A stretch of DNA of 64,000 bases from a virus: positions 1-64,000 of IMG/VR virus record IMGVR_UViG_3300021963_004264, one strand, 5' to 3'. Made by a program: the position numbers and the translations under genes. Shown piece by piece: positions 3,916 through 48,663 of the stretch. Under the pieces are notes generated by a model. It searched no databases, was not told the origin of the DNA, and was given only the letters and a program-made list of their open reading frames with translations. The first letter of the stretch is position 1. The number at the start of each line of letters is the position of its first letter.

Positions 3916-5481
3916 ATGAAAGACTTAGGAAAACGTCAAAGCGACTATGCGGTATACTTACCTGCTATCAGTAGCTTTTATACAAAACAGCTACACAAGT
4001 TACTATCTAACCCTTCCGACTGGAGAACTCCGCCAGGATTTGAAAGAGGTAATGCCGGTCTAGACTTTTTAGATCCGAGTGTCGGATATTATCATTATCC
4101 ATATGGACTATACTCAGCAGGCCATGCTCATCTAGATCCTGCTAAGAGCGATGCCGAAGAACCTATGGTTCAAAAGCGTAACAGAGGAATTACAACTGTA
4201 CTAGGTGACTCTGGCGGTTTCCAGGTTGCTAAAGGCGTACTAAAACTAGACTGGACTAATGCTAAAGATCCAAATGATCCTAGCAGAATTGAATTATGTG
4301 AAAAGATTCTTCGTTGGCTCGAACATACGTCCGATTGGGCTATGACGCTAGATATCCCAGGCTTTGCGGCTGTTCCACCTTTTAGTAAAAAGACAGGACT
4401 AACTAAGATTCAAGACACTATTGATATCAGTTTACTTAACTTAGATTACTTTGTACGCAATCGTGTACCAGGTGCTACTAAGTTTTTAAATGTTCTTTCT
4501 GGTACCGATCAAAAGAGCGCCGATGACTGGTACGAAAGTGTTAAACATTTTAGTGACCCTAAATTTGTTGCTACTGCCTATGGTGACGCTAATCGCACAC
4601 TGGAAGGTTATGCGTTTGCTGGTATTAACATGCGTAACATGCCTATCGCACTAAAGCGTTTACTTAAACTACGTGAAGATGGTTTGCTTGAAGGCAAAGG
4701 GTGGATTCACTTCCTTGGTACAGGTAAACTTAATTGGGCTTGTTATCTAACTAGTATCCAACGTATGCTACGTAAGCACGATAGTCCAAATATTACACTT
4801 AGCTTTGATGCTGCCAGTCCATTCGTTAATACAGCGTATGGTCAAACATACGCATACAACTATTTTTCTCCTAAGAGATTTGGTTATTTTATGGATCGCG
4901 CTTTTGATAATCAAAAGCTAAAAGGTAGTACAATGCCTATGCCATTTAACAGTCCTATTATGGAGCGTCTAGTTGCAGGTGATCTTTGCTGTATGGAAGA
5001 GGGTGACTTGGATCGTAACGGCAAACCTAAGGGTAAAGATAGTACAAGTTGGGACACACAGAGTTATCTCTACTATATGTCTCACAGCGTTTACAATCAT
5101 ATTACTGCCGTTCAAGAAGCCAATCGATTGGCTGATATTGAAAAGTTTAGAGCACCTGTTCACTACAGTGATTGGATCAATGACAAAACAAGTAAAGGAA
5201 CAAACGAGTTTAGTCCTTATGTTCCTTACAGTGTTGTTTACTTTGATAGCTTTGTAAAAGAAGTACTAGATCCAGCATGTCCGAATCCTTATGAACTTAT
5301 TGACAAGTACAGTAAATTCTTAGAAGAGATCAGTTTTGGTAGCTTTGCTTCCGAGACACATCTAGATGTTAGTTTCTTTGAAGAATCTACTACATCGGTG
5401 CATGACGAATCTGTCAGTCGTGAAGACGAAATGATGGATCCTGCTATGTCTGGTGATTTCGATCCGGAGTCGTTAAATTGA
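3916..5481 (+). CDS. dpdA: TGT/DpdA-family guanine transglycosylase (putative DNA 7-deazaguanine insertase)
   Basis: GDSGGFQ, MTLD, IHFLG and SFDAAS motifs of the TGT fold; clustered with folE, queD and queE. Confidence 0.75.
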   Translation: MKDLGKRQSDYAVYLPAISSFYTKQLHKLLSNPSDWRTPPGFERGNAGLDFLDPSVGYYHYPYGLYSAGHAHLDPAKSDAEEPMVQKRNRGITTVLGDSGGFQVAKGVLKLDWTNAKDPNDPSRIELCEKILRWLEHTSDWAMTLDIPGFAAVPPFSKKTGLTKIQDTIDISLLNLDYFVRNRVPGATKFLNVLSGTDQKSADDWYESVKHFSDPKFVATAYGDANRTLEGYAFAGINMRNMPIALKRLLKLREDGLLEGKGWIHFLGTGKLNWACYLTSIQRMLRKHDSPNITLSFDAASPFVNTAYGQTYAYNYFSPKRFGYFMDRAFDNQKLKGSTMPMPFNSPIMERLVAGDLCCMEEGDLDRNGKPKGKDSTSWDTQSYLYYMSHSVYNHITAVQEANRLADIEKFRAPVHYSDWINDKTSKGTNEFSPYVPYSVVYFDSFVKEVLDPACPNPYELIDKYSKFLEEISFGSFASETHLDVSFFEESTTSVHDESVSREDEMMDPAMSGDFDPESLN

Positions 5482-12190: not shown

Positions 12191-12219
12191 TTGACAAAAC
12201 ATATTTTTGTCTATATAAT
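12191..12219 (+). promoter_or_regulatory. sigma70-like promoter TTGACA-N17-TATAAT
   Basis: Perfect consensus upstream of folE. Confidence 0.8.
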
Positions 12220-12261: not shown

Positions 12262-13071
12262 TTGACACAAAAATTTAAACTTGATAATTTAATAAACGGA
12301 GATCAAAGAGAACCGTTTAGGATAGACGAGCATGTTACATTAGAAAAAGGCGCCGGCGATATGAGCGATAAAAATTACGATGAAGGCTATCTAGCAGATG
12401 CTATTCGCTTTAAAATGAGGCGCGATAACAAACGTTTCTGGGCAGGTGACAATGTCTCAGATTATGTTACAGAAGATATTAAGCATAAACTAATTGACGA
12501 AGCTACTGAAGCTTTCGAGTTAGTATTAGATCGATTACTTATTGACCGTGATACCGATCCTAACAGTAAGGGTACTGCTCGTCGATTAGCTAAAATGTAC
12601 TTTAATGAAATAATGGCAGGAAGATATGAACCAGCACCAGACGCAACAGCGTTTCCAAATGACTCGGCGGACCGTTACGAAGGTATGCTGGTTGTTCGCA
12701 GTGAGCTTCGCAGTATGTGTAGCCATCATCACCAACCCGTTACTGGCGTTGCTTATATTGGTATTATTGCCGCCGAGAAACTTATCGGCCTCAGCAAGTA
12801 CACCCGTATCGCCCAGTGGTGCGCTAGACGTGGAACTCTCCAGGAGGAACTTGCTAATGACATTGCTAGGGAAATCGAAAAGGCCACCGGAGCAAAAAAC
12901 TTAGGTGTATATATTCAAGCAACACACGGTTGTTGTGAGAACCGAGGTATTATGGCACACAGTAGTTTAACACAGACTACTGTGCTTAAAGGTTCCTTCA
13001 AAGAAGATCCCGGCGCAAAGAAAGAGTTCTTTGACAACATTAAACTACAACAAGAATTTGCGCCAAGGTAA
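12262..13071 (+). CDS. folE: GTP cyclohydrolase I
   Basis: SMCSHH, IGLSKYTR, LQEEL, HGCCENRG; TTG start with GGAG upstream (alternative ATG at 12361). Confidence 0.95.
   Translation: MTQKFKLDNLINGDQREPFRIDEHVTLEKGAGDMSDKNYDEGYLADAIRFKMRRDNKRFWAGDNVSDYVTEDIKHKLIDEATEAFELVLDRLLIDRDTDPNSKGTARRLAKMYFNEIMAGRYEPAPDATAFPNDSADRYEGMLVVRSELRSMCSHHHQPVTGVAYIGIIAAEKLIGLSKYTRIAQWCARRGTLQEELANDIAREIEKATGAKNLGVYIQATHGCCENRGIMAHSSLTQTTVLKGSFKEDPGAKKEFFDNIKLQQEFAPR
12626..12904 (+). CDS. putative overprinted small membrane protein in the +1 frame of folE
   Basis: 92 codons with a ~29 aa hydrophobic stretch; AGGA just upstream; folE synonymous codons look atypical over this span. Confidence 0.45.
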   Translation: MNQHQTQQRFQMTRRTVTKVCWLFAVSFAVCVAIITNPLLALLILVLLPPRNLSASASTPVSPSGALDVELSRRNLLMTLLGKSKRPPEQKT

Positions 13072-13074
13072 GTT

Positions 13075-13614
13075 ATGATTAAAACTAAAGGACCACATAA
13101 CATCCACGTTATTGATAGAAATAACGTACCTATATCAGAAGTATGTGATTCAGTAGCTGATCATAAATCTATTGATTGGATTAAGAATAGATTTTTAGTT
13201 ACTGATGACGAAGTGTTTGAATGCCTTGACACATATGTTGATCTAACAGACAAAACACCATTTGTAATTAAGTTAAATTGTACTGCTGATCCCAACGGCT
13301 CAGATATTTACGGCATTGAGACAACTGAAATTAATGATAAAATGTATTTCAGTATATTAAACTATGGCCGTATATTTTTTGAAGCTGACTGTTTGCAAGA
13401 ACTGTTTACTTATTCTTTAAACTTAATTATTATCGAAGCAGTCCTAGATTTGAAGGATAGTACAGATAATGATCCTATGAGTATGCATAGTGTTGTATTA
13501 GATGCTTTTAGAGATTCATATGGTAACATCGATTCATCTAACATTACACATATTCTTGAGCAGTTAGATCATCAATCTTTAATGAGACAAATGAAACATG
13601 CAAAAACCAATTAA
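13075..13614 (+). CDS. hypothetical protein, possible N-terminal DUF433-like HTH
   Basis: 179 aa; VPISEV..SIDWIK..VTDDEVFECLDTY resembles the DUF433 pattern. Confidence 0.6.
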   Translation: MIKTKGPHNIHVIDRNNVPISEVCDSVADHKSIDWIKNRFLVTDDEVFECLDTYVDLTDKTPFVIKLNCTADPNGSDIYGIETTEINDKMYFSILNYGRIFFEADCLQELFTYSLNLIIIEAVLDLKDSTDNDPMSMHSVVLDAFRDSYGNIDSSNITHILEQLDHQSLMRQMKHAKTN

Positions 13615-14488
13615 ATACAGCGAACTATTCTATAGTGCTCAAGGCGAAGGAAAATATGTAGGTATTCCTAGTCTTTGGCTAAGATTTTTCCTTTGCAATT
13701 TACAGTGTAACGGGTTCGGTCAATGCGATCCAACAAATCCTGATACATATGAATTGCCGTTTGAAACAGTTGATATTAGCAATATCAAACGTGTTGAGGA
13801 TTTGCCTGTTTTTGAAAAGGGATGCGATAGCAGTTATACTTGGAGTAAACGCTACAGCCACCTTATTACAGAGCGTAGTGTCGAAGAAACTGTTGATAAT
13901 CTAACAGCACTATTACCAAACGGGACCTTTCAACATCCTAAGAGTTCTCAATGGGCGCATATGGTGTTTACTGGTGGCGAGCCTATGCTTAAGAAGTCTC
14001 AGGAAGGCATGATTGCTATTCTCAATGAGTTTGGTCGTAGACTTAACATGCCTAAGAATATCACAGTTGAAACTAATGGCACACAACCACTTACACCTGA
14101 ATTAGAACAGTTTATCACTGAATACTTTTGGAAGTATGGTGGAGATTGGTACTGGAGCGTAAGTCCTAAACTCTGGAGTACAGCAGGCGAGAAGCACAAC
14201 AGGGCTATCAAGCCAGATGTTCTTGCCTCATATGATCGTGTATCAAAGCACGGACAATTAAAGTTTGTTGTAAATGGTAGCAAGGAGAGCTGGCGGGAAG
14301 TAGAAGAAAATACGAAAATATTTCGTGATGCAGGCTGTAACTTTCCAGTATGGATTATGGGTGTTGGTGGTACGTTAGAAGGCCTCAAAATTACAGAAGC
14401 CATGATTGCAGACGAAGCAATACAGCGTGGGTATAACTATACAAGTCGTGTACATGTACACATTTATGGTAATGCAATTGGAAAATAA
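13598..14488 (+). CDS. queE: 7-carboxy-7-deazaguanine synthase (radical SAM)
   Basis: YSAQGEG..G.PS.WLR, CNLQC...CDS, TGGEP, ETNGT, SVSPK, VHVHIYG. Confidence 0.92.
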   Translation: MQKPIKYSELFYSAQGEGKYVGIPSLWLRFFLCNLQCNGFGQCDPTNPDTYELPFETVDISNIKRVEDLPVFEKGCDSSYTWSKRYSHLITERSVEETVDNLTALLPNGTFQHPKSSQWAHMVFTGGEPMLKKSQEGMIAILNEFGRRLNMPKNITVETNGTQPLTPELEQFITEYFWKYGGDWYWSVSPKLWSTAGEKHNRAIKPDVLASYDRVSKHGQLKFVVNGSKESWREVEENTKIFRDAGCNFPVWIMGVGGTLEGLKITEAMIADEAIQRGYNYTSRVHVHIYGNAIGK

Positions 14489-40072: not shown

Positions 40073-41275
40073 TTAAAAATTACTATCTACCCAAGCTTCT
40101 ATATCATTTGATTGTGCTAGTGTTTTTACTCTATAAAAATTATTTGCTAATCTCACAGACATATTTCTTTGTTTTAATATCTCACACCAACCGTTTATTG
40201 TATACATATTTACTAAACGTTTTAATTCATCAAACACTAAATCACATCGTTTATAAATGTTATCTTCTTTATCATAATTATGATTCACTATATCGTCAAA
40301 CATATCAAAACCTAGCTCTCGTAGCACTTGTACCATTCCTGGTGCAGCGATGAATAAAGGAATTTGATTCATTAAAAATGCTTTAGCAGTTTTTTCTGTA
40401 AAAAATACTCTATCAGACGAAACTGTTTGCCAATTATATGGCACAGGACTATAATATTTAACATGACTTCTAACATCACTACCAACAGACGACTCTTGAA
40501 CAACATTAAAAATTGCTGATTCAAATTCTTTGAAAAAATGATGTTGATCATTGTCTGCGTGATTAACAGATACAGGAAATTTAGCAAGCTCGTCGTCACT
40601 AAGCATTAATTTTAAATAATTTATGCTGTTCGGATCTTTCCAAACATTTAATGTGTCATTGCCCCAACCACAAGTTACTATACCCTTATTTAATAAGTCG
40701 GCCTCATTTAAAATTTTGTTAGTAAAATAGATACGTTCTTGTCTAACTAATCTACCTAAGCTAACAAAATGTTTATTTTTACAACCTATGTCGCCAGCAG
40801 TTGGAATTTTATCTACCACTAAAGGTCTAAAAAGAGATTTAAAAAATGTTGGTGCAGTAAAGTGTGTTATTTTTAATTTTTCTAGGTGTCTAAGGACAGG
40901 GCCTTTAGTGAGGGCGCCATCAATCCATAAAATATTTTTATAACCATCGCTCTGCAACATATCAAACACAATGTTCCAATATGTTGAGTTTAATGCTTCG
41001 GTTGTATAACCAACAATAATATTTTCTTTCTTAGGAAGGCAAGAAAGCGCATATTTTGTATAAAGACTAATATCAAATTCGGAGATACTTTGATAATCTA
41101 TGATGTTAAATGAATTACTTTTATTTGTTAGGCTATCATATAGTGCATCGTACTGGTCGTTAAGGTGTACAATATCTGCATGACAGATAGTTTTTGTCTT
41201 AGTAATTTCTAGATTTTTATTAGGATCTAGATAACTAGGATGATAAAACTTTTCAATATGTGTGGTTGTATCCAT
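40073..41275 (-). CDS. hypothetical glycosyltransferase-like protein (TEKT family)
   Basis: FNVVQES, FFTEKTAKAF, LRELGFDMFDD..YD; AT-rich. Confidence 0.55.
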   Translation of the reverse strand: MDTTTHIEKFYHPSYLDPNKNLEITKTKTICHADIVHLNDQYDALYDSLTNKSNSFNIIDYQSISEFDISLYTKYALSCLPKKENIIVGYTTEALNSTYWNIVFDMLQSDGYKNILWIDGALTKGPVLRHLEKLKITHFTAPTFFKSLFRPLVVDKIPTAGDIGCKNKHFVSLGRLVRQERIYFTNKILNEADLLNKGIVTCGWGNDTLNVWKDPNSINYLKLMLSDDELAKFPVSVNHADNDQHHFFKEFESAIFNVVQESSVGSDVRSHVKYYSPVPYNWQTVSSDRVFFTEKTAKAFLMNQIPLFIAAPGMVQVLRELGFDMFDDIVNHNYDKEDNIYKRCDLVFDELKRLVNMYTINGWCEILKQRNMSVRLANNFYRVKTLAQSNDIEAWVDSNF

Positions 41276-42497
41276 ACTTCTCTATCATTTCTATTAGTTC
41301 AGGGAACACAGCACGCCAAGTTAAACTAGCTGGGTGTTGACGTTGCTTATCTAGTTGATCATTGTAGCGACAAAACTGTTCCCATTTATTTGAATCCCAG
41401 TCATCGTTTTCAAATAAACCTGTAATATTTGAAAAATGTACGCCATTACCGTACTTACCAACTCTATATTTGTGAATAATTTCTTTTCTTACCTCCGGAG
41501 GTAGAACCGCAGGACTTAAAAAGTCAGGATCATATACAAAATTCATATCTACTGGTACAGGAGCCCAATCTAAAAATTCTTCCAAGTAAGCAAAATTATA
41601 AGCACTAACAGTTTGTGTGATGCGTATAGTTAAATCTGTTTCCATAAGTCTATTAAGATTATCTCTAACATCAGCCCAGTATGTTGGAAAACGTATATAA
41701 TGATTACGTACATGCAAATCGTCGATGCTCGGGCATACACGAGTCTCTTTGAATTCTTTCCATAAAGGAATAGCCTGTTCGGGTAAGTTAGTCATATTAA
41801 TGTTATACCACAATGTAATATTTTTACTACGGCCACCGTCTACTAACTTACGTAGATACTTCCAATGTGCTTTAATAAGTGTTGGTTCGCCTCCATTGAT
41901 ATACAATACTTCCATGTTAGGCGCACTATTGTACAAATCTTCATAGAAGCTTTCATCCTCAGGCCATTTAAAATCGTTTTTATGATCTAGCCAACTATAT
42001 CCGTCGTTTACAAACTCTAATTTTTCCACCAATTCTTGATAATCTCGGCGCCACTGACTGCTACTTGCTGGATTGCAAGTACGACAGCGAACATTGCATA
42101 CATTACCAAGACGGAGCTCGACAAAACGAAGGTCAAGAGGAATGCCACCGTTAGTGTCAGTAATGCTGCTAGCCCAAGTAAGGTCTCGATGAGGATACTG
42201 GCCCATTTCATGTTTTCTTTTGCTAACAATTTTTTTATCTTCTTCATCATAACACCTCATACATGCAACAGGTTTTTCACCATTTAACATTTGTTGCCTT
42301 ATTTGCTTAAAGTAATCACTGTTCATGTGGGTGTTAATATCGTGATTATTTAATGTAAAGAATTGATCTCCATCTGGGCCAAAATTTCTAGCACGATTTT
42401 TACCTGCTGTGTGATCGCTGATACAGCAAGGTGTAACACCACCATGCGGGTGTGTACCTAAATGAATCCACGGTAGTGGACAGAATGTATTACTCAT
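41253..42497 (-). CDS. radical SAM protein with N-terminal twitch/SPASM-like domain
   Basis: FCPLPW.H..PCC..CMRC; CNVRCRTC; GGEP. Confidence 0.9.
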   Translation of the reverse strand: MSNTFCPLPWIHLGTHPHGGVTPCCISDHTAGKNRARNFGPDGDQFFTLNNHDINTHMNSDYFKQIRQQMLNGEKPVACMRCYDEEDKKIVSKRKHEMGQYPHRDLTWASSITDTNGGIPLDLRFVELRLGNVCNVRCRTCNPASSSQWRRDYQELVEKLEFVNDGYSWLDHKNDFKWPEDESFYEDLYNSAPNMEVLYINGGEPTLIKAHWKYLRKLVDGGRSKNITLWYNINMTNLPEQAIPLWKEFKETRVCPSIDDLHVRNHYIRFPTYWADVRDNLNRLMETDLTIRITQTVSAYNFAYLEEFLDWAPVPVDMNFVYDPDFLSPAVLPPEVRKEIIHKYRVGKYGNGVHFSNITGLFENDDWDSNKWEQFCRYNDQLDKQRQHPASLTWRAVFPELIEMIEKYGYNHTY

Positions 42498-43831
42498 ATA
42501 AATGCGCCTTTCGCTACAGCGCCGTAACGTGGATCTTCTACAGCTTTAGCGTAGTGAAAATCATAATCAAAATATGGTTTGATTATTTCATACAGTTCAG
42601 GAAATACTTTTCTAAAATCTTCGCCTCTATATCTATCACCTGCAACCAGTTGTTGCATAAACATTCTACGTCTAACAGCCATTTCTGTTTCAACAGTAAT
42701 ATTAGGATCAGGAACATCGCTCCAATCACGCATGGGTATTACTACTTGCTCCAGTGGTGTTAGTACATGATTAATAATACCTTTGATTTGCCCTTCAACG
42801 GAAGCATTAGGAAAAGTCATGTTTTGTAAAGGCGCAACTACTTTGGTTTTTACAAATTCCTCAAACACATTACTATTAAACCAGCTGGGGAAATGAACCA
42901 TATTAAAGAAAATTTCAAAATTAGGCCAACGTTCAGCAAATACTTCTACATATTCTTTTAAGTACATCACATTCATTGCTGATACCGTACATGTAATACT
43001 TACATAAATTTCTTTGTTAGTATGTAATGTATGGAAATGGTCTAAATTTTTACTTACTACATCCCAATCAGCACCATGTCTTAAATATTCAAATCTTTCT
43101 TTACTGGCAGCATCAACACTAATACCGAAACCAACATCCTTAAAGTTCTTAATAAGTTTACCTACCAAGTCAGTGTGTAATTGTGTTCCGTTAGTGCTAA
43201 AGTTAAGAGCAATATCTTTTGCAAGATCACGTTCAATAAGTTTTTCAGCAAATGATTTAAACTCTTTCATATACAGCGGCTCGCCGCCCATAATTTCTAG
43301 ATACTTAATATCCTTGATCCAGTCATCCATCTCAGTCCAAAACTTTGCATTTTCCATGTCGTCCATTTGAATAGCAACTGTTTCTTTTAGATAGGGCAGA
43401 CCTCTATCTTCAGACTCTTTAACCCACTTACTGCTATAGTTAGGATTACACGTTCTGCATTTAATATTACAAGTTGTTCCTAAAATAAGTTGGAAGTCTT
43501 GCGGCATTTCTGGTTCTTGAGAATAGTCTATTTCTTCGTAGCGCCATTTAGCATACTCGTTATAAATTTCACGTTTAGACTGTTTACCATTAGCTTCGTC
43601 TTGCCAACAATGCTTACAGTTTTTTGGTAAACCACCTTCTCTAATTTCTTGGCGGACATTTTTATAAAATTCACTGTGGAAGATGTCACGAACACTAGTT
43701 TCACCAAGTGTATAAAATTCTCCATTAGGCTTTGTTACACGTTGTTGTGCAATACAACATGTTCTAACAAATCCACCTGGTTCGTTACTCATGTGCTTCC
43801 AAAGCAAACTGCAATATCTAGGTTCAGACAT
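42494..43831 (-). CDS. radical SAM protein with N-terminal twitch/SPASM-like domain
   Basis: YCSLLW.H..TCC..CKHC; CNIKCRTC; GGEP; STNG. Confidence 0.9.
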   Translation of the reverse strand: MSEPRYCSLLWKHMSNEPGGFVRTCCIAQQRVTKPNGEFYTLGETSVRDIFHSEFYKNVRQEIREGGLPKNCKHCWQDEANGKQSKREIYNEYAKWRYEEIDYSQEPEMPQDFQLILGTTCNIKCRTCNPNYSSKWVKESEDRGLPYLKETVAIQMDDMENAKFWTEMDDWIKDIKYLEIMGGEPLYMKEFKSFAEKLIERDLAKDIALNFSTNGTQLHTDLVGKLIKNFKDVGFGISVDAASKERFEYLRHGADWDVVSKNLDHFHTLHTNKEIYVSITCTVSAMNVMYLKEYVEVFAERWPNFEIFFNMVHFPSWFNSNVFEEFVKTKVVAPLQNMTFPNASVEGQIKGIINHVLTPLEQVVIPMRDWSDVPDPNITVETEMAVRRRMFMQQLVAGDRYRGEDFRKVFPELYEIIKPYFDYDFHYAKAVEDPRYGAVAKGAFI

Positions 43832-44963
43832 TTACTACTTCCTCTTTTTCGTTATAAATCTTATATGCTAGGTTATAGTTATGATCTAAAACTTCTTGAA
43901 CTTCTTCACTATAAACTTTTTCTTTTAAACTGTTAAAAGGCATATCTAAGTATGTTGTTACTTGATTTAAAATATGATCTATTCTTTCAAAACTGTCGTC
44001 TATATCATCATAGCTTTCATCAAATAAAATACCATCAAATGTTTTGAAGCCCCATGACCGTAAAACTTTTAATCCGTTTGGCATGCCAAACCTAATAAAA
44101 GGTCTTTTATATATTATTGATCTAAAAAGTTTTTCGGATAACACATCTTCTTTCCACCAATCATTCTTATTTTTAAATTCTTTATAATCTTCAAAACTAT
44201 AAAAATCCTCTGCTTCATGATAGTCAATATTAAAATTAAATAAACACGAAGAAAAAGAATTTTTAAATTCGTCAGTTTCGCCAAGCCATATATTTGAAGT
44301 CCTAACAATGTTCTCAACATTTTTTGTTAACGAATTAAAGTAATTTTTTTGTTCGTTAGTTAAATTCCAATCGTCGGGTACATCAAAATTTTCGTAAAAA
44401 AACGATGTTATCATCTTTTCTATTCTTGGTGTATTAACAATATTTTTTAAATACCATTGTAACACAAAATTTCTATGTAGTGTAGGTCTACCTACAAACA
44501 TACTTACATGCTTAGTTTCTTCTTTTTCTAAATAGCTACAACCATTTAAAAATAATCGCTCTAACCAAAGACTCTTAGGTTGATTGTATACTTTTATTTT
44601 TTTATCTATTAGATTTTTGTTACACCATTTATTGTAGCTGTCAGTACTATAAATGTTTGATGTTAAAAAAACAATATTTTCTTCGGGAATTTGAAAATGT
44701 TTAGATAGGTCATGTAATATATCAAACCATAATTTACTTTTATCGCGAGAACCAAACAACATAGGCTCTTCTACACAATCTATTATGAGTTGTTTATCTT
44801 TATTTTCTAATGCGGCTTTTTCAAAAACTTGTTTAATTTTAAAAAGTTTATTGTCGTTAGATGATAAAGGGAACCCGCCATGAATAGTTATATAGTAAGA
44901 AGTTAGAGGAGAATGAACTCCCCTAACTTCCATTTTACCTGTTATTGTTTTTTGCAATAACAT
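43824..44963 (-). CDS. hypothetical glycosyltransferase-like protein (SEK family)
   Basis: LSEKLFRSI..RPFI, LRSWGFKTF..FDESYD, HNY; very AT-rich. Confidence 0.55.
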   Translation of the reverse strand: MLLQKTITGKMEVRGVHSPLTSYYITIHGGFPLSSNDNKLFKIKQVFEKAALENKDKQLIIDCVEEPMLFGSRDKSKLWFDILHDLSKHFQIPEENIVFLTSNIYSTDSYNKWCNKNLIDKKIKVYNQPKSLWLERLFLNGCSYLEKEETKHVSMFVGRPTLHRNFVLQWYLKNIVNTPRIEKMITSFFYENFDVPDDWNLTNEQKNYFNSLTKNVENIVRTSNIWLGETDEFKNSFSSCLFNFNIDYHEAEDFYSFEDYKEFKNKNDWWKEDVLSEKLFRSIIYKRPFIRFGMPNGLKVLRSWGFKTFDGILFDESYDDIDDSFERIDHILNQVTTYLDMPFNSLKEKVYSEEVQEVLDHNYNLAYKIYNEKEEVVNV

Positions 44964-46246
44964 TACCTAGTATTGCCGTAATGAACTACTTCTACACCAG
45001 TTAAATCAGGTGTTTTACGCCACGGATCAACTACAACACTTCCTTCGGCAAAGCTAAGGGTAGTACCATTAGCTGTTGCTACTGTTAATGCTTCATCTGC
45101 ACCTGTAACTCTGTGATCATTATACCAACCTTTTACAAAGTCTAGCTGTTCACCGTAAGTAATCTGCGGATTGTGTGCTAGCAAGTAAACAGCTGGGCTA
45201 GATAGAACATCAGCTGGCGGTACTTCTCCCATTACTTCGTCTAAGTAATAAAGTTTAGCACCAAGTTGTTCTACATAATGCCCAACCAACATACTGCTAC
45301 TACCGGCATCATATGGCACTAATGGCTTATATGCTTTACCTACAATAACTACAGGCTTGCCGGATGCAAGTTCAACTAACTTTTTAGCCATGTTTTCTGC
45401 TTGTACTTCACGTGAACGCATTACAGCATCAAATAAGTCATAGCCTAAGTCTAGGCGCTCTGCTAGAAAGCGTAGAGCAATATTATCGCGTGGGTGACAT
45501 GCACCGCCATCGCCCATGCCAGGCTTCATGTAACCTGGTCCCATAATGCGTCTGTCGCTTGTTGCTAGTGCATCGCAAACTACTTCAGCATTAACATGAC
45601 CTAGCTTTTCAGCTACGTCCTGAATCATGTTTACTAGGCTTACTTTAGCACTAATGAATGTATTATAGAATACTTTGATACATTCTGTTTCTTCCCAAGT
45701 ACCTACAATGTAACGTGGGCTGTTCTGCATAATGGTCTTGTAGAAGTCTACAAGTTCTTTTGCATCACCAGTTTCGCTGCCATCCTCTGTACCAATCATA
45801 ACCATTTCTGGGTTAACCATGTCCCACTTAACAGTACCCATAGCAATTAAGTATGGATTATAAATGAAACGTGCATTAGTTATTAATGGTTGTAACTGAC
45901 TACGAACTGTACCTGGTAGTACAGTTGAGATTAGAACAATTAACTGAGACGGTGTTGCAACCGCATTTACTTCACGCAGAACGTTCTTGACTACAGTGTA
46001 ATCAAAGTCTTTGTTAGGTAAATGACTGGTTGGTGCTTTGCCATCATATTTTGGATCGTGCGGTGTTTCAACTGCGATAAACACAATATCTTGACCGCGT
46101 ACTGCATCAGCGAGTGTAGGAACCATTTTAAAGTTCTCTGGCTCGCGTGGTGAAATATCATATCCAACAACATCATGGACTTCAGCGACCATCTCGGCGC
46201 AGGCTTGTCCTAGCTTGCCAACTCCGATAAATCCGATTGAGGCCAT
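44963..46246 (-). CDS. UDP-glucose/GDP-mannose dehydrogenase family protein
   Basis: IGVGKLG, IAVETP, STVLPGT, YNP, K.FYN, GGACHPRD, AYKP, DPW. Confidence 0.92.
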   Translation of the reverse strand: MASIGFIGVGKLGQACAEMVAEVHDVVGYDISPREPENFKMVPTLADAVRGQDIVFIAVETPHDPKYDGKAPTSHLPNKDFDYTVVKNVLREVNAVATPSQLIVLISTVLPGTVRSQLQPLITNARFIYNPYLIAMGTVKWDMVNPEMVMIGTEDGSETGDAKELVDFYKTIMQNSPRYIVGTWEETECIKVFYNTFISAKVSLVNMIQDVAEKLGHVNAEVVCDALATSDRRIMGPGYMKPGMGDGGACHPRDNIALRFLAERLDLGYDLFDAVMRSREVQAENMAKKLVELASGKPVVIVGKAYKPLVPYDAGSSSMLVGHYVEQLGAKLYYLDEVMGEVPPADVLSSPAVYLLAHNPQITYGEQLDFVKGWYNDHRVTGADEALTVATANGTTLSFAEGSVVVDPWRKTPDLTGVEVVHYGNTR

Positions 46247-46290
46247 TTTCTTCTCCTAAGTTGTTAAGTACAGTTTTAACTGTACCTACA

Positions 46291-46299
46291 TATTTATCA
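46291..46299 (-). promoter_or_regulatory. T4-type late promoter TGATAAATA, followed by a 5' stem-loop GTACAGTT-AA-AACTGTAC
   Basis: Motif in the intergenic gap upstream of the dehydrogenase. Confidence 0.65.
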
Positions 46300-46317
46300 G
46301 GTAATTTTACTTGATTA

Positions 46318-47712
46318 TCAAGTATTTGGCTTTCTCATCCACCAATCGTATAGTTCGTTGTCGGCTTTGTATATGTCTTCGATGCGTAAAGGCTGTTCTG
46401 GACGAATATCAGCAATCTTATCCTGCCAGTTGCGTCCTTTGAAGAAACTGGCTTCAGCTTGATCTGGCCACTGTTCTTGGAACGTAGGTGTTACTAACAT
46501 ATTCTCTAGTTCACGTATTAGTGTTTGTTGTTTATGTGTAGCACGTGGTACAATATAATCTAAATTTTCTTTAATGATACGATCTAAAATGTGTCTCGGC
46601 CAAGCCATAGGACTAAACACAATGTCGGAATGAAATGCAAACATACGTTTAGTTTCAATTTTAACATCTAATTCTAATGCATAATTAAAGAAAGTTTTTA
46701 AATCAAACATACCTGGGCCAGTTAATGTAAGATCCATGAGCATACGATCTTTACCTCCTGGTAGTGCTACACCTTCACGGAAGTTACGATCCCATTCATT
46801 CCACTTTAACCCAGTACGGATAAATTCACCAATAGTACCAGTACCATCAATACTAGCGCACATAGTCCAGTCCTTGGCTTGTGGTAACCAATCATACAAA
46901 TAGTGATTATTAAATCTTACTCTGCTTAAGTTACTGTTATAACGTAAATGTACTTTTTTAAGATTGTCGTCTTGCGATAAACGATCCATTGCACGCCAGT
47001 GAATATCATACATCAATGGTTCACCGCCGACCCAATAAATTTCCTCTACAATACCTCGACAGATGGCATCCCAAAATTCTTCTTCTACAACTTCTTTTTG
47101 GAATTTCTCAATGATCTTTTTATTTTCGGGGACCATGAAAGGTTGGTTTTCTGGACTCCAGAGACCGTGCTTTTTCTTTTCTGCTTCCCAGCTTGAAGAA
47201 AGAGGTTCACCACACATACGACACTTAAAATTGCATAAATTACTGACCCTATAGTCAAAGCTAATAGGCTCCATACGAGTAGTTCCATCATCATCTGTCT
47301 CCTCGAACGCTTGTTCGATCTTGTCCTTAAATAAAAATCCTGTAAACCACTGGCGATAAGTGCTTTGACTTAAAATGCTATCATTACATACTGCACATTG
47401 TGGTATTGTTTCCCCGGACATTAGCTTCTTGCGAATGTCCTTCATATAATCACTATTCCAGTGTTCGTGTAAACTTACTGGTTTATAATCGTCAATAGTG
47501 CCTACTTCTTTATACTTGCCGGTGCTCTTGTCGTTGCTAGCGTCAATGTATTGACGCTGCATCATATGTTCTTCGCGACTAGCACAGCACATGCGTCGCT
47601 CGCTTTGAGGACTAATGTACGTATGCGTCCATGGCGCCATACAAAATGTTTTGTTAGGAGATTCTGGACTCATTTGCCCATGTTCCCAAATTGGTTTAAT
47701 TCTTTTTGTCAT
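46318..47712 (-). CDS. radical SAM protein with N-terminal twitch/SPASM-like domain
   Basis: FCMAPWTH..MCC..CAVC; CNFKCRMC; GGEP. Confidence 0.9.
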   Translation of the reverse strand: MTKRIKPIWEHGQMSPESPNKTFCMAPWTHTYISPQSERRMCCASREEHMMQRQYIDASNDKSTGKYKEVGTIDDYKPVSLHEHWNSDYMKDIRKKLMSGETIPQCAVCNDSILSQSTYRQWFTGFLFKDKIEQAFEETDDDGTTRMEPISFDYRVSNLCNFKCRMCGEPLSSSWEAEKKKHGLWSPENQPFMVPENKKIIEKFQKEVVEEEFWDAICRGIVEEIYWVGGEPLMYDIHWRAMDRLSQDDNLKKVHLRYNSNLSRVRFNNHYLYDWLPQAKDWTMCASIDGTGTIGEFIRTGLKWNEWDRNFREGVALPGGKDRMLMDLTLTGPGMFDLKTFFNYALELDVKIETKRMFAFHSDIVFSPMAWPRHILDRIIKENLDYIVPRATHKQQTLIRELENMLVTPTFQEQWPDQAEASFFKGRNWQDKIADIRPEQPLRIEDIYKADNELYDWWMRKPNT

Positions 47713-47930
47713 AGTTTTTGTATATCTATTACGCCGTAGTGATCCATTGTGGCTACTGTTATGTTATGTCGCTTAATTACTGCAAATACTAAATCAATCA
47801 TTACCTGACTGTTGCCGCAAATTATTTTTAAAGGCACTAATTTTTGATTCATGAAAATAAAGTTTTCCACTATGCGATCAACGTCATGATGTCTTACTCC
47901 GTGTAAATCTAATGTATTATTTTTACCCAT
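47709..47930 (-). CDS. stand-alone minimal Smr-like domain protein
   Basis: TLDLHGVRH, IICG. Confidence 0.6.
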   Translation of the reverse strand: MGKNNTLDLHGVRHHDVDRIVENFIFMNQKLVPLKIICGNSQVMIDLVFAVIKRHNITVATMDHYGVIDIQKL

Positions 47931-48663
47931 TTGCAATCTCTAGTATTTCTAAATTTTTAAAGTAATCATAAAATTGTTGAGGTGTTAACAAGGCTGCATT
48001 ATCACTATCTTCATCGCCCAGATACTTTTCAATAAATTCTACACCTTTATATGCAACTGCAACACTAGGGAATATGCCTACATCTTTACTTTCGTACCCT
48101 ACAGTATAACCTTGCTGTATTAATTTATCTAGTTCGTTTAAATGAATTTCATTGATCTCAGGCGGAAAATTTTCTGTAGTGTAATATACTTGCAGATTCT
48201 TTCTACCTTTACCATATAGTGTTTGGTAGTCTTCATTGTGTTTGTAACTAAAGATAACTTCTGTAAAATTATTTTTGCAAAATCTAGATAGTTCGTAAAT
48301 GTTGACAGCACTGTTATGAAGCTTAATAACTTTAGCATCACAATACTCTTTTACAAATTCTGCCGCATTACTGTCAGTAACACTCCATATAACGGGTATA
48401 CCTATTCTATTTGCTAAATTGCTAATATGTTCAGCTGAATTTATATCTATCTCACTACGTTTAGCAACTTCAATATATGGTAAATGCCCCCAGCGACTTG
48501 GTATAGAAACATATTTCTTTTCTTCCGGTATAAGCAAACTAGGTGTGCTTTTGCTAATTACAACTGCATCAGCATTACACTGTGCAGCCGCAATTAGTCT
48601 TGCTTCTAAGACACTAATTTTATTTTCGTGTCCTACACCTATGTTAGCATATAGTTTAGCCAT
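47923..48663 (-). CDS. NeuB/SpsE-like nonulosonate synthase family protein (degenerate)
   Basis: ANIGVGH (cf. AEIGxNH), ADAV, IEKY, D..ALLTP. Confidence 0.7.
   Translation of the reverse strand: MAKLYANIGVGHENKISVLEARLIAAAQCNADAVVISKSTPSLLIPEEKKYVSIPSRWGHLPYIEVAKRSEIDINSAEHISNLANRIGIPVIWSVTDSNAAEFVKEYCDAKVIKLHNSAVNIYELSRFCKNNFTEVIFSYKHNEDYQTLYGKGRKNLQVYYTTENFPPEINEIHLNELDKLIQQGYTVGYESKDVGIFPSVAVAYKGVEFIEKYLGDEDSDNAALLTPQQFYDYFKNLEILEIANG

Follow-up and report, generated by a model that had tools for sequence, protein, structure and literature searches.

The 64,000 nucleotides at positions 1 to 64,000 of the IMG/VR virus record IMGVR_UViG_3300021963_004264 (hereafter, the window) probably contain an overprinted gene. 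An open reading frame (ORF) at 12626-12904 lies wholly within folE (12262-13071), the gene encoding GTP cyclohydrolase I, on the same strand at an offset of +1, and we consider it likely that this ORF is initiated internally and encodes a small single-pass membrane protein. As judged from the sequence comparisons below, the ORF combines the characteristics by which overprinted genes are recognized, namely its embedding in another gene, a frame that is kept open, a start context of its own and protein properties that are under selection. Embedded overprinted phage genes are a known kind of element; what is notable here is the host gene, which encodes a metabolic enzyme of a giant phage, together with an outgroup that dates the birth of the ORF. 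The ORF has so far gone unannotated as a gene and is very probably real.

A preliminary description of this DNA, made from its letters alone, proposed that folE is dual-coding and that its +1 frame specifies a membrane protein, a proposal now strongly supported by the conservation of the frame, its restriction to one clade and the choice of folE codons. The 92-codon ORF is present exactly as described, and the layout of the peptide is borne out as well, with a basic TRRTVTK, a 29-residue hydrophobic stretch with a central NP, and a tail that is first Ser/Pro-rich and then basic. The shift in folE codons reported across the ORF is likewise real. The G+C content of third codon positions (GC3) in folE is 0.45 within the ORF versus 0.26 upstream and 0.33 downstream, and total GC reaches a local maximum of 0.51-0.52 at the ORF versus about 0.35. 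The NTA codons (TTA, CTA, GTA and ATA), which across the window account for 60% of Leu, 40% of Val and 20% of Ile codons, are used by folE not once within the ORF. Among the off-frame ORFs of the window, the folE ORF is the longest, followed by ORFs of 77, 69 and 68 codons. Stop-free stretches of the +1 frame in the window reach 96, 94, 94 and 81 codons, and two other genes of the window have such stretches of 94 codons. By the window alone, the length of the folE ORF is no outlier and simply tops a continuous range of off-frame ORFs, so the case has to be decided by its relatives.

More than 600 matches to folE were found in IMG/VR, and about 160 related folE genes, in two sets of 80, were used for comparison. 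Briefly, a scan with the window FolE provided the 80 closest loci (75-90% protein identity), chosen by FolE similarity alone. These were codon-aligned to the window to give 81 sequences, the 75 unique ones of which were scored for stops against an expectation based on the pooled codon usage of 219 flanking ORFs. Of the 81 sequences, 53 have no stop in the +1 frame along the full 92 codons, and 79 have an ATG at the equivalent position that opens a +1 frame of at least 52 codons. In contrast, only 1.1 fully open frames are expected from random draws on the codon usage of each gene, and permutation of codons between sites of the stretch that share a residue raises the expectation to 10.2. The alignment of folE from related phages that the preliminary description had proposed as a test therefore returns the pattern anticipated for a maintained frame: over the first 51 ORF codons (folE codons 122-172), the close homologues contain 4 stops in the +1 frame versus 200 expected, a ratio of 0.02. 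The ratio is 0.22 over folE codons 173-213 (38 observed, 172 expected), 0.93 upstream at codons 41-121 (401 observed, 431 expected) and 0.64 downstream at codons 215-268 (98 observed, 153 expected). The +2 frame stays at 0.96-1.03 throughout folE. In the flanking genes the +1 stop ratio is 0.96, and only 0.1% of 92-codon windows are free of stops. At the position of the terminal TAG, a stop is found in 66 of the 75 close homologues, versus 29.9 expected.

Synonymous codon differences in the flanks average 0.45, versus 0.57 expected at saturation, and the sequence set is therefore well diverged. Neutral synonymous turnover was simulated on the gene tree in 300 runs, with the rate fitted to the flanks and the window's open ORF placed at the root. 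With flank-pooled codon usage, the simulations yield a mean of 3.2 fully open leaves (maximum 13 of 81) and a mean of 16.6 leaves open for 52 codons (maximum 32). With the codon usage of the stretch itself, which is already shaped by stop avoidance and so makes the simulation conservative, the corresponding means are 21.5 (maximum 43) and 42 (maximum 60). Neutral simulations never reach the observed counts of 53 and 79, and shared ancestry does not account for the open frame.

Within the stretch, the choice of folE codons depends upon the base that follows. Val144, followed by G, is encoded by GTA in 1 of 75 sequences and Val145, followed by C, in 21 of 75. TTG and CTG together encode Leu143 (next base G) in 45 of 75 sequences, and Leu174 (next base A) in 2 of 75. 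Leu177 codons with TA or TG at the end are accompanied by a TCN serine in 23 cases and by an AGY serine in one, while the safe codons are found 33 times with AGY and 18 times with TCN (Fisher 3e-7, relatedness ignored); the same pairing is found at Val160 (Fisher 3e-8, again with relatedness ignored). Such next-base-dependent choice is a mark of stop avoidance and not of plain codon bias. It bears directly on an alternative account, according to which the ORF is a non-functional by-product whose frame is held open and hydrophobic by local codon bias in the conserved catalytic core of folE, together with ancestry. T-ending codons indeed make the +1 frame hydrophobic, the +1 frame has the fewest stops and contains all of the longest off-frame ORFs, and NTA codons occur at about half their expected frequency even at harmless sites of the stretch. 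The outgroup introduced below and downstream folE are also mildly depleted of stops (0.6-0.8). However, the depletion over the ORF is 50-fold rather than 1.5-fold and depends on the next base, and neither permuted codons nor simulation on the tree with the usage of the stretch reproduces the observed counts.

Two other sources of the codon pattern were considered and rejected. Avoidance of TTA and CTA on account of an antisense ORF is contradicted by the frequency of these codons at Leu193 and Leu149, both followed by C, and the minus strand holds only ORFs of 44-49 codons. Recent import of the core from a high-GC donor does not fit the GC3 of the stretch, which averages 0.38 versus 0.31-0.33 across near-saturated relatives.

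Sequences that lack the ORF provide the ancestral comparison. The only cultured relative recovered by nucleotide search, Sinorhizobium phage Phosso (469 kb), encodes a FolE 60% identical to that of the window (tblastn), and its +1 frame stops 36 codons after the equivalent ATG. A second IMG/VR scan seeded with Phosso FolE added 80 loci that are 53-81% identical to the window FolE and have similar GC contents (34-52%). In most of these folE genes, the +1 frame is interrupted by 2-9 stops, located at the very sites kept free of stops in the first set. Taken unselected, the second set yields stop ratios of 0.66 and 0.59, close to its own downstream ratio of 0.64. In a FolE tree of 162 sequences, in which a sequence was scored as ORF-bearing if it had an ATG-led ORF of at least 52 codons, 87 of the 92 ORF-bearing sequences fall within a single clade, which comprises 97 leaves and has a support of 0.86. 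Flank codon usage is alike inside and outside this clade. The outgroup thus possesses the same protein motifs and the same flank codon usage and nonetheless has 2-9 stops, which argues against the by-product account and indicates that an open +1 frame is not a property of FolE in AT-rich phages. From its distribution on the tree, the open frame originated in a single lineage and has been retained there.

Two observations concern the frame outside this pattern. Over folE codons 173-268, +1 stops occur at about 0.6 of expectation even in the sequences without the ORF, the first half being at 0.9. In addition, the five loci L112, L123, L126, L128 and L157 form a small separate folE clade (GC 0.39-0.46) in which the +1 frame is open for 108-142 codons and stays open despite a synonymous divergence of 0.3-0.55. 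The frame in these loci starts about 9-13 codons further upstream and continues beyond the usual stop; the ATG at the usual site is missing in three of the five, and Arg occurs within the hydrophobic part. It could be an older or alternative form of the overprinted gene, or a product of chance at higher GC.

The third base of each folE codon is the middle base of the +1 codon and therefore sets the +1 residue. A comparison of 82 clade members with 54 outgroup sequences reveals opposite preferences at these bases in adjoining segments of the ORF. Over the 19 N-terminal residues of the peptide, the clade favors CCA, GCA and ACA, which place Gln where the outgroup often has Leu. Over the next 29 residues, the clade favors T- or C-ending codons, giving Leu, Val, Ala and Phe, where the outgroup has Gln, His, Arg, Glu or Asn. 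At folE Glu148, for example, the clade uses GAG in 75 of 82 members, although GAG is chosen for only 19% of Glu codons genome-wide, and the outgroup uses GAA in 45 of 54; Pro159 is CCC or CCT in the clade versus CCA in the outgroup, and Ala164 is GCT versus GCA. The mean hydropathy of the N-terminus is -1.23 in the clade, compared with +0.28 in the outgroup and +0.07 in a stop-free null, and that of the helix is 2.32, compared with 1.25 and 1.34; the tail is the same as the null. In each of the two leading segments, the offset from both the outgroup and the null amounts to about 2 standard deviations. Polar residues in the helix average 1.07 in the clade versus 5.46 in the outgroup. The caution, voiced at the outset, that T-ending codons render +1 frames hydrophobic by default is sound as far as it goes, but the outgroup and the stop-free null are far less hydrophobic than the clade. 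Given opposite third-base preferences in adjoining segments, no single codon bias can be responsible, as a uniform bias cannot yield both an A-ending N-terminus and a T/C-ending helix, and we regard the by-product account as unlikely.

The same measurements weigh on a further possibility, that the act of translation alone matters, with ribosome traffic tuning the expression of folE or of downstream genes and the peptide itself being without function. Such an account would accommodate the weak conservation of the peptide (mean column identity 69%, with 4 invariant columns) and a tail that evolves at a saturated synonymous rate and is often shortened. A purely regulatory ORF, however, needs no particular composition, whereas the clade keeps a polar N-terminus and a hydrophobic helix relative to both the outgroup and the null, and clade members with a shortened ORF have weaker hydrophobic peaks (2.51 vs 2.80, p=0.003). 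We therefore judge a translation-only role to be quite unlikely.

Within the clade, synonymous distance is 0.93 over the start region and N-terminus, with its minimum at folE codons 119-140, 1.22 over the helix, 1.55-1.71 in the flanks and 2.41, which is saturated, over the tail. The suppression of synonymous variation anticipated in the preliminary description is thus seen over the start region and the transmembrane segment, but there is none over the tail. With a constraint this modest, the exact sequence of the peptide is only weakly constrained, and the constrained unit comprises roughly the first 50 residues, with the tail loosely held. Low synonymous variation over codons 119-140 would also be expected if RNA or DNA rather than a protein were under constraint, for instance as a folded structure or a binding site. 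Yet the start region, which is A-rich, folds no better than shuffled sequence (z = 0.02, single fold), third bases are free to vary among the permitted codons, and neither frame-specific stop avoidance nor a bias in amino-acid type is predicted by a nucleic-acid constraint, which makes this explanation highly improbable. Taken together, the comparisons show that selection maintains the open frame as well as the ATG with its surroundings, and that it shapes the polarity of the two leading segments.

The start site is conserved along with the frame. An ATG stands at the start of the ORF in 78 of 81 sequences, created by the use of TAT for Tyr122 in 73 of 75. The Shine-Dalgarno-like sequence with short spacing that had been pointed out upstream of the ORF is confirmed: AGGAAGA ends 1 nt before the ATG, with its AGGA core 4 nt away. 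In the clade, Arg121 is mostly AGA, with A as its first base in 61 of 82 members and as its third base in 73, which gives AGGAAGA or AGGTAGA just before the ATG; in 48 of 54 outgroup sequences it is CGN. A Shine-Dalgarno-like 4-mer is present in 65 of 75 sequences of the first set versus 43 of 73 of the second. Codon 117, which supplies the TAA just upstream, is ATA in 53 of 82 clade members versus 14 of the 54 in the outgroup. In 54 of 82 clade members, the last +1 stop ahead of the ATG is 2-4 codons away from it, and in 53 of 82 there is no other in-frame start.

These elements also speak to the idea that the +1 frame is entered by programmed ribosomal frameshifting from folE, which would fuse the N-terminal third of FolE to a membrane anchor. 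Frameshift products exist in phages, the tail assembly chaperones being an example, and an open +1 frame under selection is what such a mechanism would entail. The stop just upstream of the ATG nevertheless argues against a fusion with FolE, because hardly any space remains for a shift site; inspection of 12611-12626 reveals no slippery motif, and the elements that are conserved are the ATG and its purine-rich, Shine-Dalgarno-like context. Frameshifting is accordingly a very improbable source of the product.

Between the start of folE and the embedded ORF, no site resembling a promoter was detected. A sigma-70-type promoter with full agreement to consensus precedes folE (Table 1) and is the likely source of an mRNA carrying both frames. 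Metatranscriptome contigs from four studies cover parts of folE. RNA-library contigs of two of these studies, independent of each other, begin at 12607, 19 nt before the ATG, possibly as an assembly-graph break at strain variation; contigs cannot show transcript ends and may break at such variation.

Table 1. Coordinates of folE, of the embedded ORF with its predicted segments and signals, and of two further +1 ORFs in the window.
Feature	Position	Strand	Remarks
Sigma-70-type promoter (predicted), TTGACA-17-TATAAT	12191-12219	+	12 of 12 consensus; 43 nt upstream of the folE TTG
folE (GTP cyclohydrolase I)	12262-13071	+	TTG start, 269 aa; Pfam PF01227 GTP_cyclohydroI, 4e-38
+1-frame TAA	12611-12613	+	From folE Ile117-Met118 (ATA ATG); shuts the +1 frame 4 codons before the ATG
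Purine-rich Shine-Dalgarno-like AGGAAGA	12618-12624	+	From folE Ala-Gly-Arg (GCA GGA AGA)
Embedded ORF, 92 codons + TAG	12626-12904	+	+1 frame of folE, ATG to TAG
N-terminal polar, basic segment, residues 1-19, MNQHQTQQRFQMTRRTVTK	12626-12682	+	Predicted to be cytoplasmic
Hydrophobic transmembrane-type helix (predicted), residues 20-48	12683-12769	+	Overlies the folE CSHHH-motif segment
Variable C-terminal tail, residues 49-92, Ser/Pro-rich then basic	12770-12901	+	Often shortened in relatives
TAG stop of embedded ORF	12902-12904	+	From folE Leu214-Gly215 (TTA GGT)
77-codon +1 ORF	42017-42250	-	Over the CxxxCxxC motif of radical SAM gene 41253-42497 (-)
69-codon +1 ORF	47085-47294	-	Over the CxxxCxxC motif (SNLCNFKCRMCG) of paralogous radical SAM-like gene 46318-47712 (-)

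AlphaFold2, run with 53 natural variants of the peptide, predicts one long helix, residues 3-47, with a kink at N37-P38. The block-mean predicted local distance difference test score is 67-85 over residues 1-50 and below 50 over residues 52-71 and 83-92. The P38 position is occupied by Pro in 40, Leu in 39 and Gln in 3 clade members. The peptide has no match in Pfam or PHROGs, even at permissive thresholds, and no relative in the PDB by sequence profile or in the ESM Atlas (best score 0.81). Among 5.8 billion proteins there are only two matches, P0001 and P0002, both of 92 aa and both the same embedded ORF called by a gene finder. The peptide is thus an orphan, as would be expected of a gene born by overprinting, and literature searches returned no report of a gene inside folE.

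In the model that best accommodates these observations, folE was overprinted in the common ancestor of a single clade of giant phages from aquatic habitats, none of them cultured. The folE mRNA would be made, probably early, from the sigma-70 promoter, and ribosomes would start internally at the conserved AUG at 12626, aided by AGGAAGA and by the A-rich, unstructured start region. Reading in the +1 frame would then yield a protein of about 92 residues with a polar, basic N-terminus, a long hydrophobic helix and a loose tail of ~44 residues. The positive charges suggest that the N-terminus is cytoplasmic and that the tail faces outward. We infer the translation, membrane insertion, topology and role of the product in this model from sequence.

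As to that role, we speculate, with little confidence, that the product is an early-made accessory protein at the host inner membrane. The analogy is to the Imm, Sp and RI antiholin proteins of T4-like phages, small early membrane proteins of 80-100 aa that function at the host envelope, where they exclude superinfecting phages or set the timing of lysis, and that consist of one N-terminal anchor or helix and a short extracytoplasmic part. The likeness extends to size, architecture and inferred early timing only; the T4-like proteins are encoded by free-standing genes, and no sequence similarity to them was found.

The preliminary description had instead suggested a holin, an antiholin or a lysis effector resembling protein E of phiX174. 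This part of the proposal found no support and, again as a matter of speculation, we do not favor a holin or an E-type lysis protein. The database searches above gave no relative of the peptide in any holin family or in the Microviridae lysis protein family. The early-type promoter, which is the sole promoter-like site and a sigma-70 consensus, the DNA-modification neighbors and the lack of a nearby lysis cassette (the neighbors being a phosphoribosyltransferase gene, folE itself, a gene of unknown function and queE, within a 7-deazaguanine cluster) speak against holin, E-type and Rz1-type proteins alike, as do a helix that is not terminal, a proline conserved in only about half of the clade and the absence of a lipobox. 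The lipobox [LVI][ASTVI][GAS]C does not occur, the residues preceding the two cysteines being V-C and [F/C/Y][A/V][V/L]-C. A lipoprotein is ruled out on this ground, and Cys31 is forced by a folE Met codon.

In phiX174, the lysis gene E is read from gene D in the +1 frame (Barrell et al. 1976; Bernhardt et al. 2000, both as cited in PMC8227390). It shares with the folE ORF a length of ~91-92 codons, complete embedding in the +1 frame of another gene, an ATG of its own, a de novo origin, dependence on the mRNA of the host gene, a single-pass membrane protein (predicted here) with a proline in the helix and a basic tail. In E, however, the helix is at the extreme N-terminus and Pro21 is essential, whereas here a 19-residue polar segment comes first, the helix starts at residue 20 and P38 is found in only about half of the clade. 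Moreover, folE is a metabolic enzyme gene of a double-stranded DNA (dsDNA) phage without obvious genome-size pressure, and the peptide has no sequence or family match to E. The second precedent is provided by embedded o-spanin genes, lambda Rz1 within Rz and T7 18.7 within 18.5 (PMC5295617, PMC6139136). These too are fully embedded +1 genes of tailed dsDNA phages for small envelope proteins (predicted here), but Rz1 is a lipoprotein with a lipobox, encoded in a lysis cassette inside its functional partner, while the folE ORF resides in a DNA-modification gene and lacks a tail of the length and constancy that a spanin requires. Experiments in E. coli have demonstrated overprinted orphan genes (for example, PMC4683798), and de novo genes have been described for viruses (PMC3494269, PMC8227390). 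Like the folE ORF, these genes originated by overprinting within a restricted clade, encode orphans and are under weak sequence constraint; the E. coli cases are mostly antisense and have expression data, whereas the folE case is same-strand, in the +1 frame and comparative, drawing on about 160 natural variants and a clear outgroup without the gene.

Several observations count against an overprinted membrane-protein gene. Ten of the 97 clade leaves lack the ORF as defined, and the tail is shortened in 29 of 82 clade members, ending at codon 52-90. The AGGA core stands 4 nt from the ATG, closer than the 5-9 nt usual in the window, and about 10 of 75 close relatives have no Shine-Dalgarno-like 4-mer. 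Synonymous divergence is lowered only moderately over the first 50 codons and not over the tail. Both invariant cysteines are forced by folE Met codons and are uninformative. The simulation assumes one rate for all sites, and the covariation tests and per-site ratios ignore relatedness, so that the simulations alone account for kinship. Translation is deduced for an uncultured phage and cannot be shown by RNA-library contigs, and any function, given a product with no homologue or family, is a guess.

Same-strand embedded genes are textbook material in tiny phages and in spanin pairs, but annotations of such genes are exceedingly scarce in large dsDNA phages, whose genomes are under no pressure to be compact, and the setting is a rare one. 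If the reading proposed here holds, the birth of this gene can be dated, as the host gene is ancient and the ORF-less relatives represent the ancestral state, and about 90 natural variants, with several lineages having lost the ORF, show what selection tolerates. The region should be useful for studying the origin of membrane proteins and the sharing of frames, for folE has been recoded with rare GAG and CCC codons and avoids TTA, GTA and ATA. The window also adds to signs that a class of small membrane proteins in giant phages is missed by gene callers, and recoding or codon-optimizing such phage enzymes would unknowingly destroy a second gene.

The weak TTG start of folE is backed by homologues that begin with MTEKFKLD at the same place and have ATG at that residue. 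Upstream of folE is the phosphoribosyltransferase gene; downstream are the gene of unknown function and the gene for a QueE-like radical SAM enzyme, neighbors that identify the locus as the 7-deazaguanine cluster of the phage. The source record comprises 73,954 bases at a CheckV completeness of 20%, which points to a giant phage with a genome of roughly 370 kb when scaled accordingly. DNA near-identical to the window is found in lake, estuary and other aquatic metagenomes of many studies.

Other +1 ORFs of the window served as controls. Of 22 homologues of gene 3916-5481, just 1 retains the 94-codon open +1 stretch of that gene (ratio 1.23). A hydrophobic-looking +1 ORF of 51 codons at 13749-13904 (+), inside queE (13598-14488), is broken in the closest relative, locus L001 (QueE 86% identical), by stops at codons 10 and 16, and is a chance ORF. 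In contrast, the 77-codon ORF at 42017-42250 (-), picked as a negative control, is conserved: 28 nearer homologues contain 4 +1 stops versus 91 expected, while the rest of gene 41253-42497 (-) is at a ratio of 1.3 and distant homologues are at 1.12. This ORF is probably a second hidden gene. Its product looks like a two-helix membrane peptide (MMKKIKKLLAKEN...). The 69-codon ORF at 47085-47294 (-), whose peptide has the appearance of a transmembrane helix followed by a basic tail, is a possible third.

A broader proposal, doubtful at present, is that the lineage systematically carries +1 membrane-protein genes overprinted on metal-site cores, namely the CSHHH segment of folE, the CxxxCxxC motif beneath the ORF at 42017-42250 (-) and probably that beneath the ORF at 47085-47294 (-). 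If true, the host envelope would be the target of a whole set of membrane microproteins that annotation has missed, and one of these could be a single-gene lysis or superinfection-exclusion effector of a new family. Seven of the ten longest off-frame ORFs of the window are located in the minus-strand gene block at 40073-48663.

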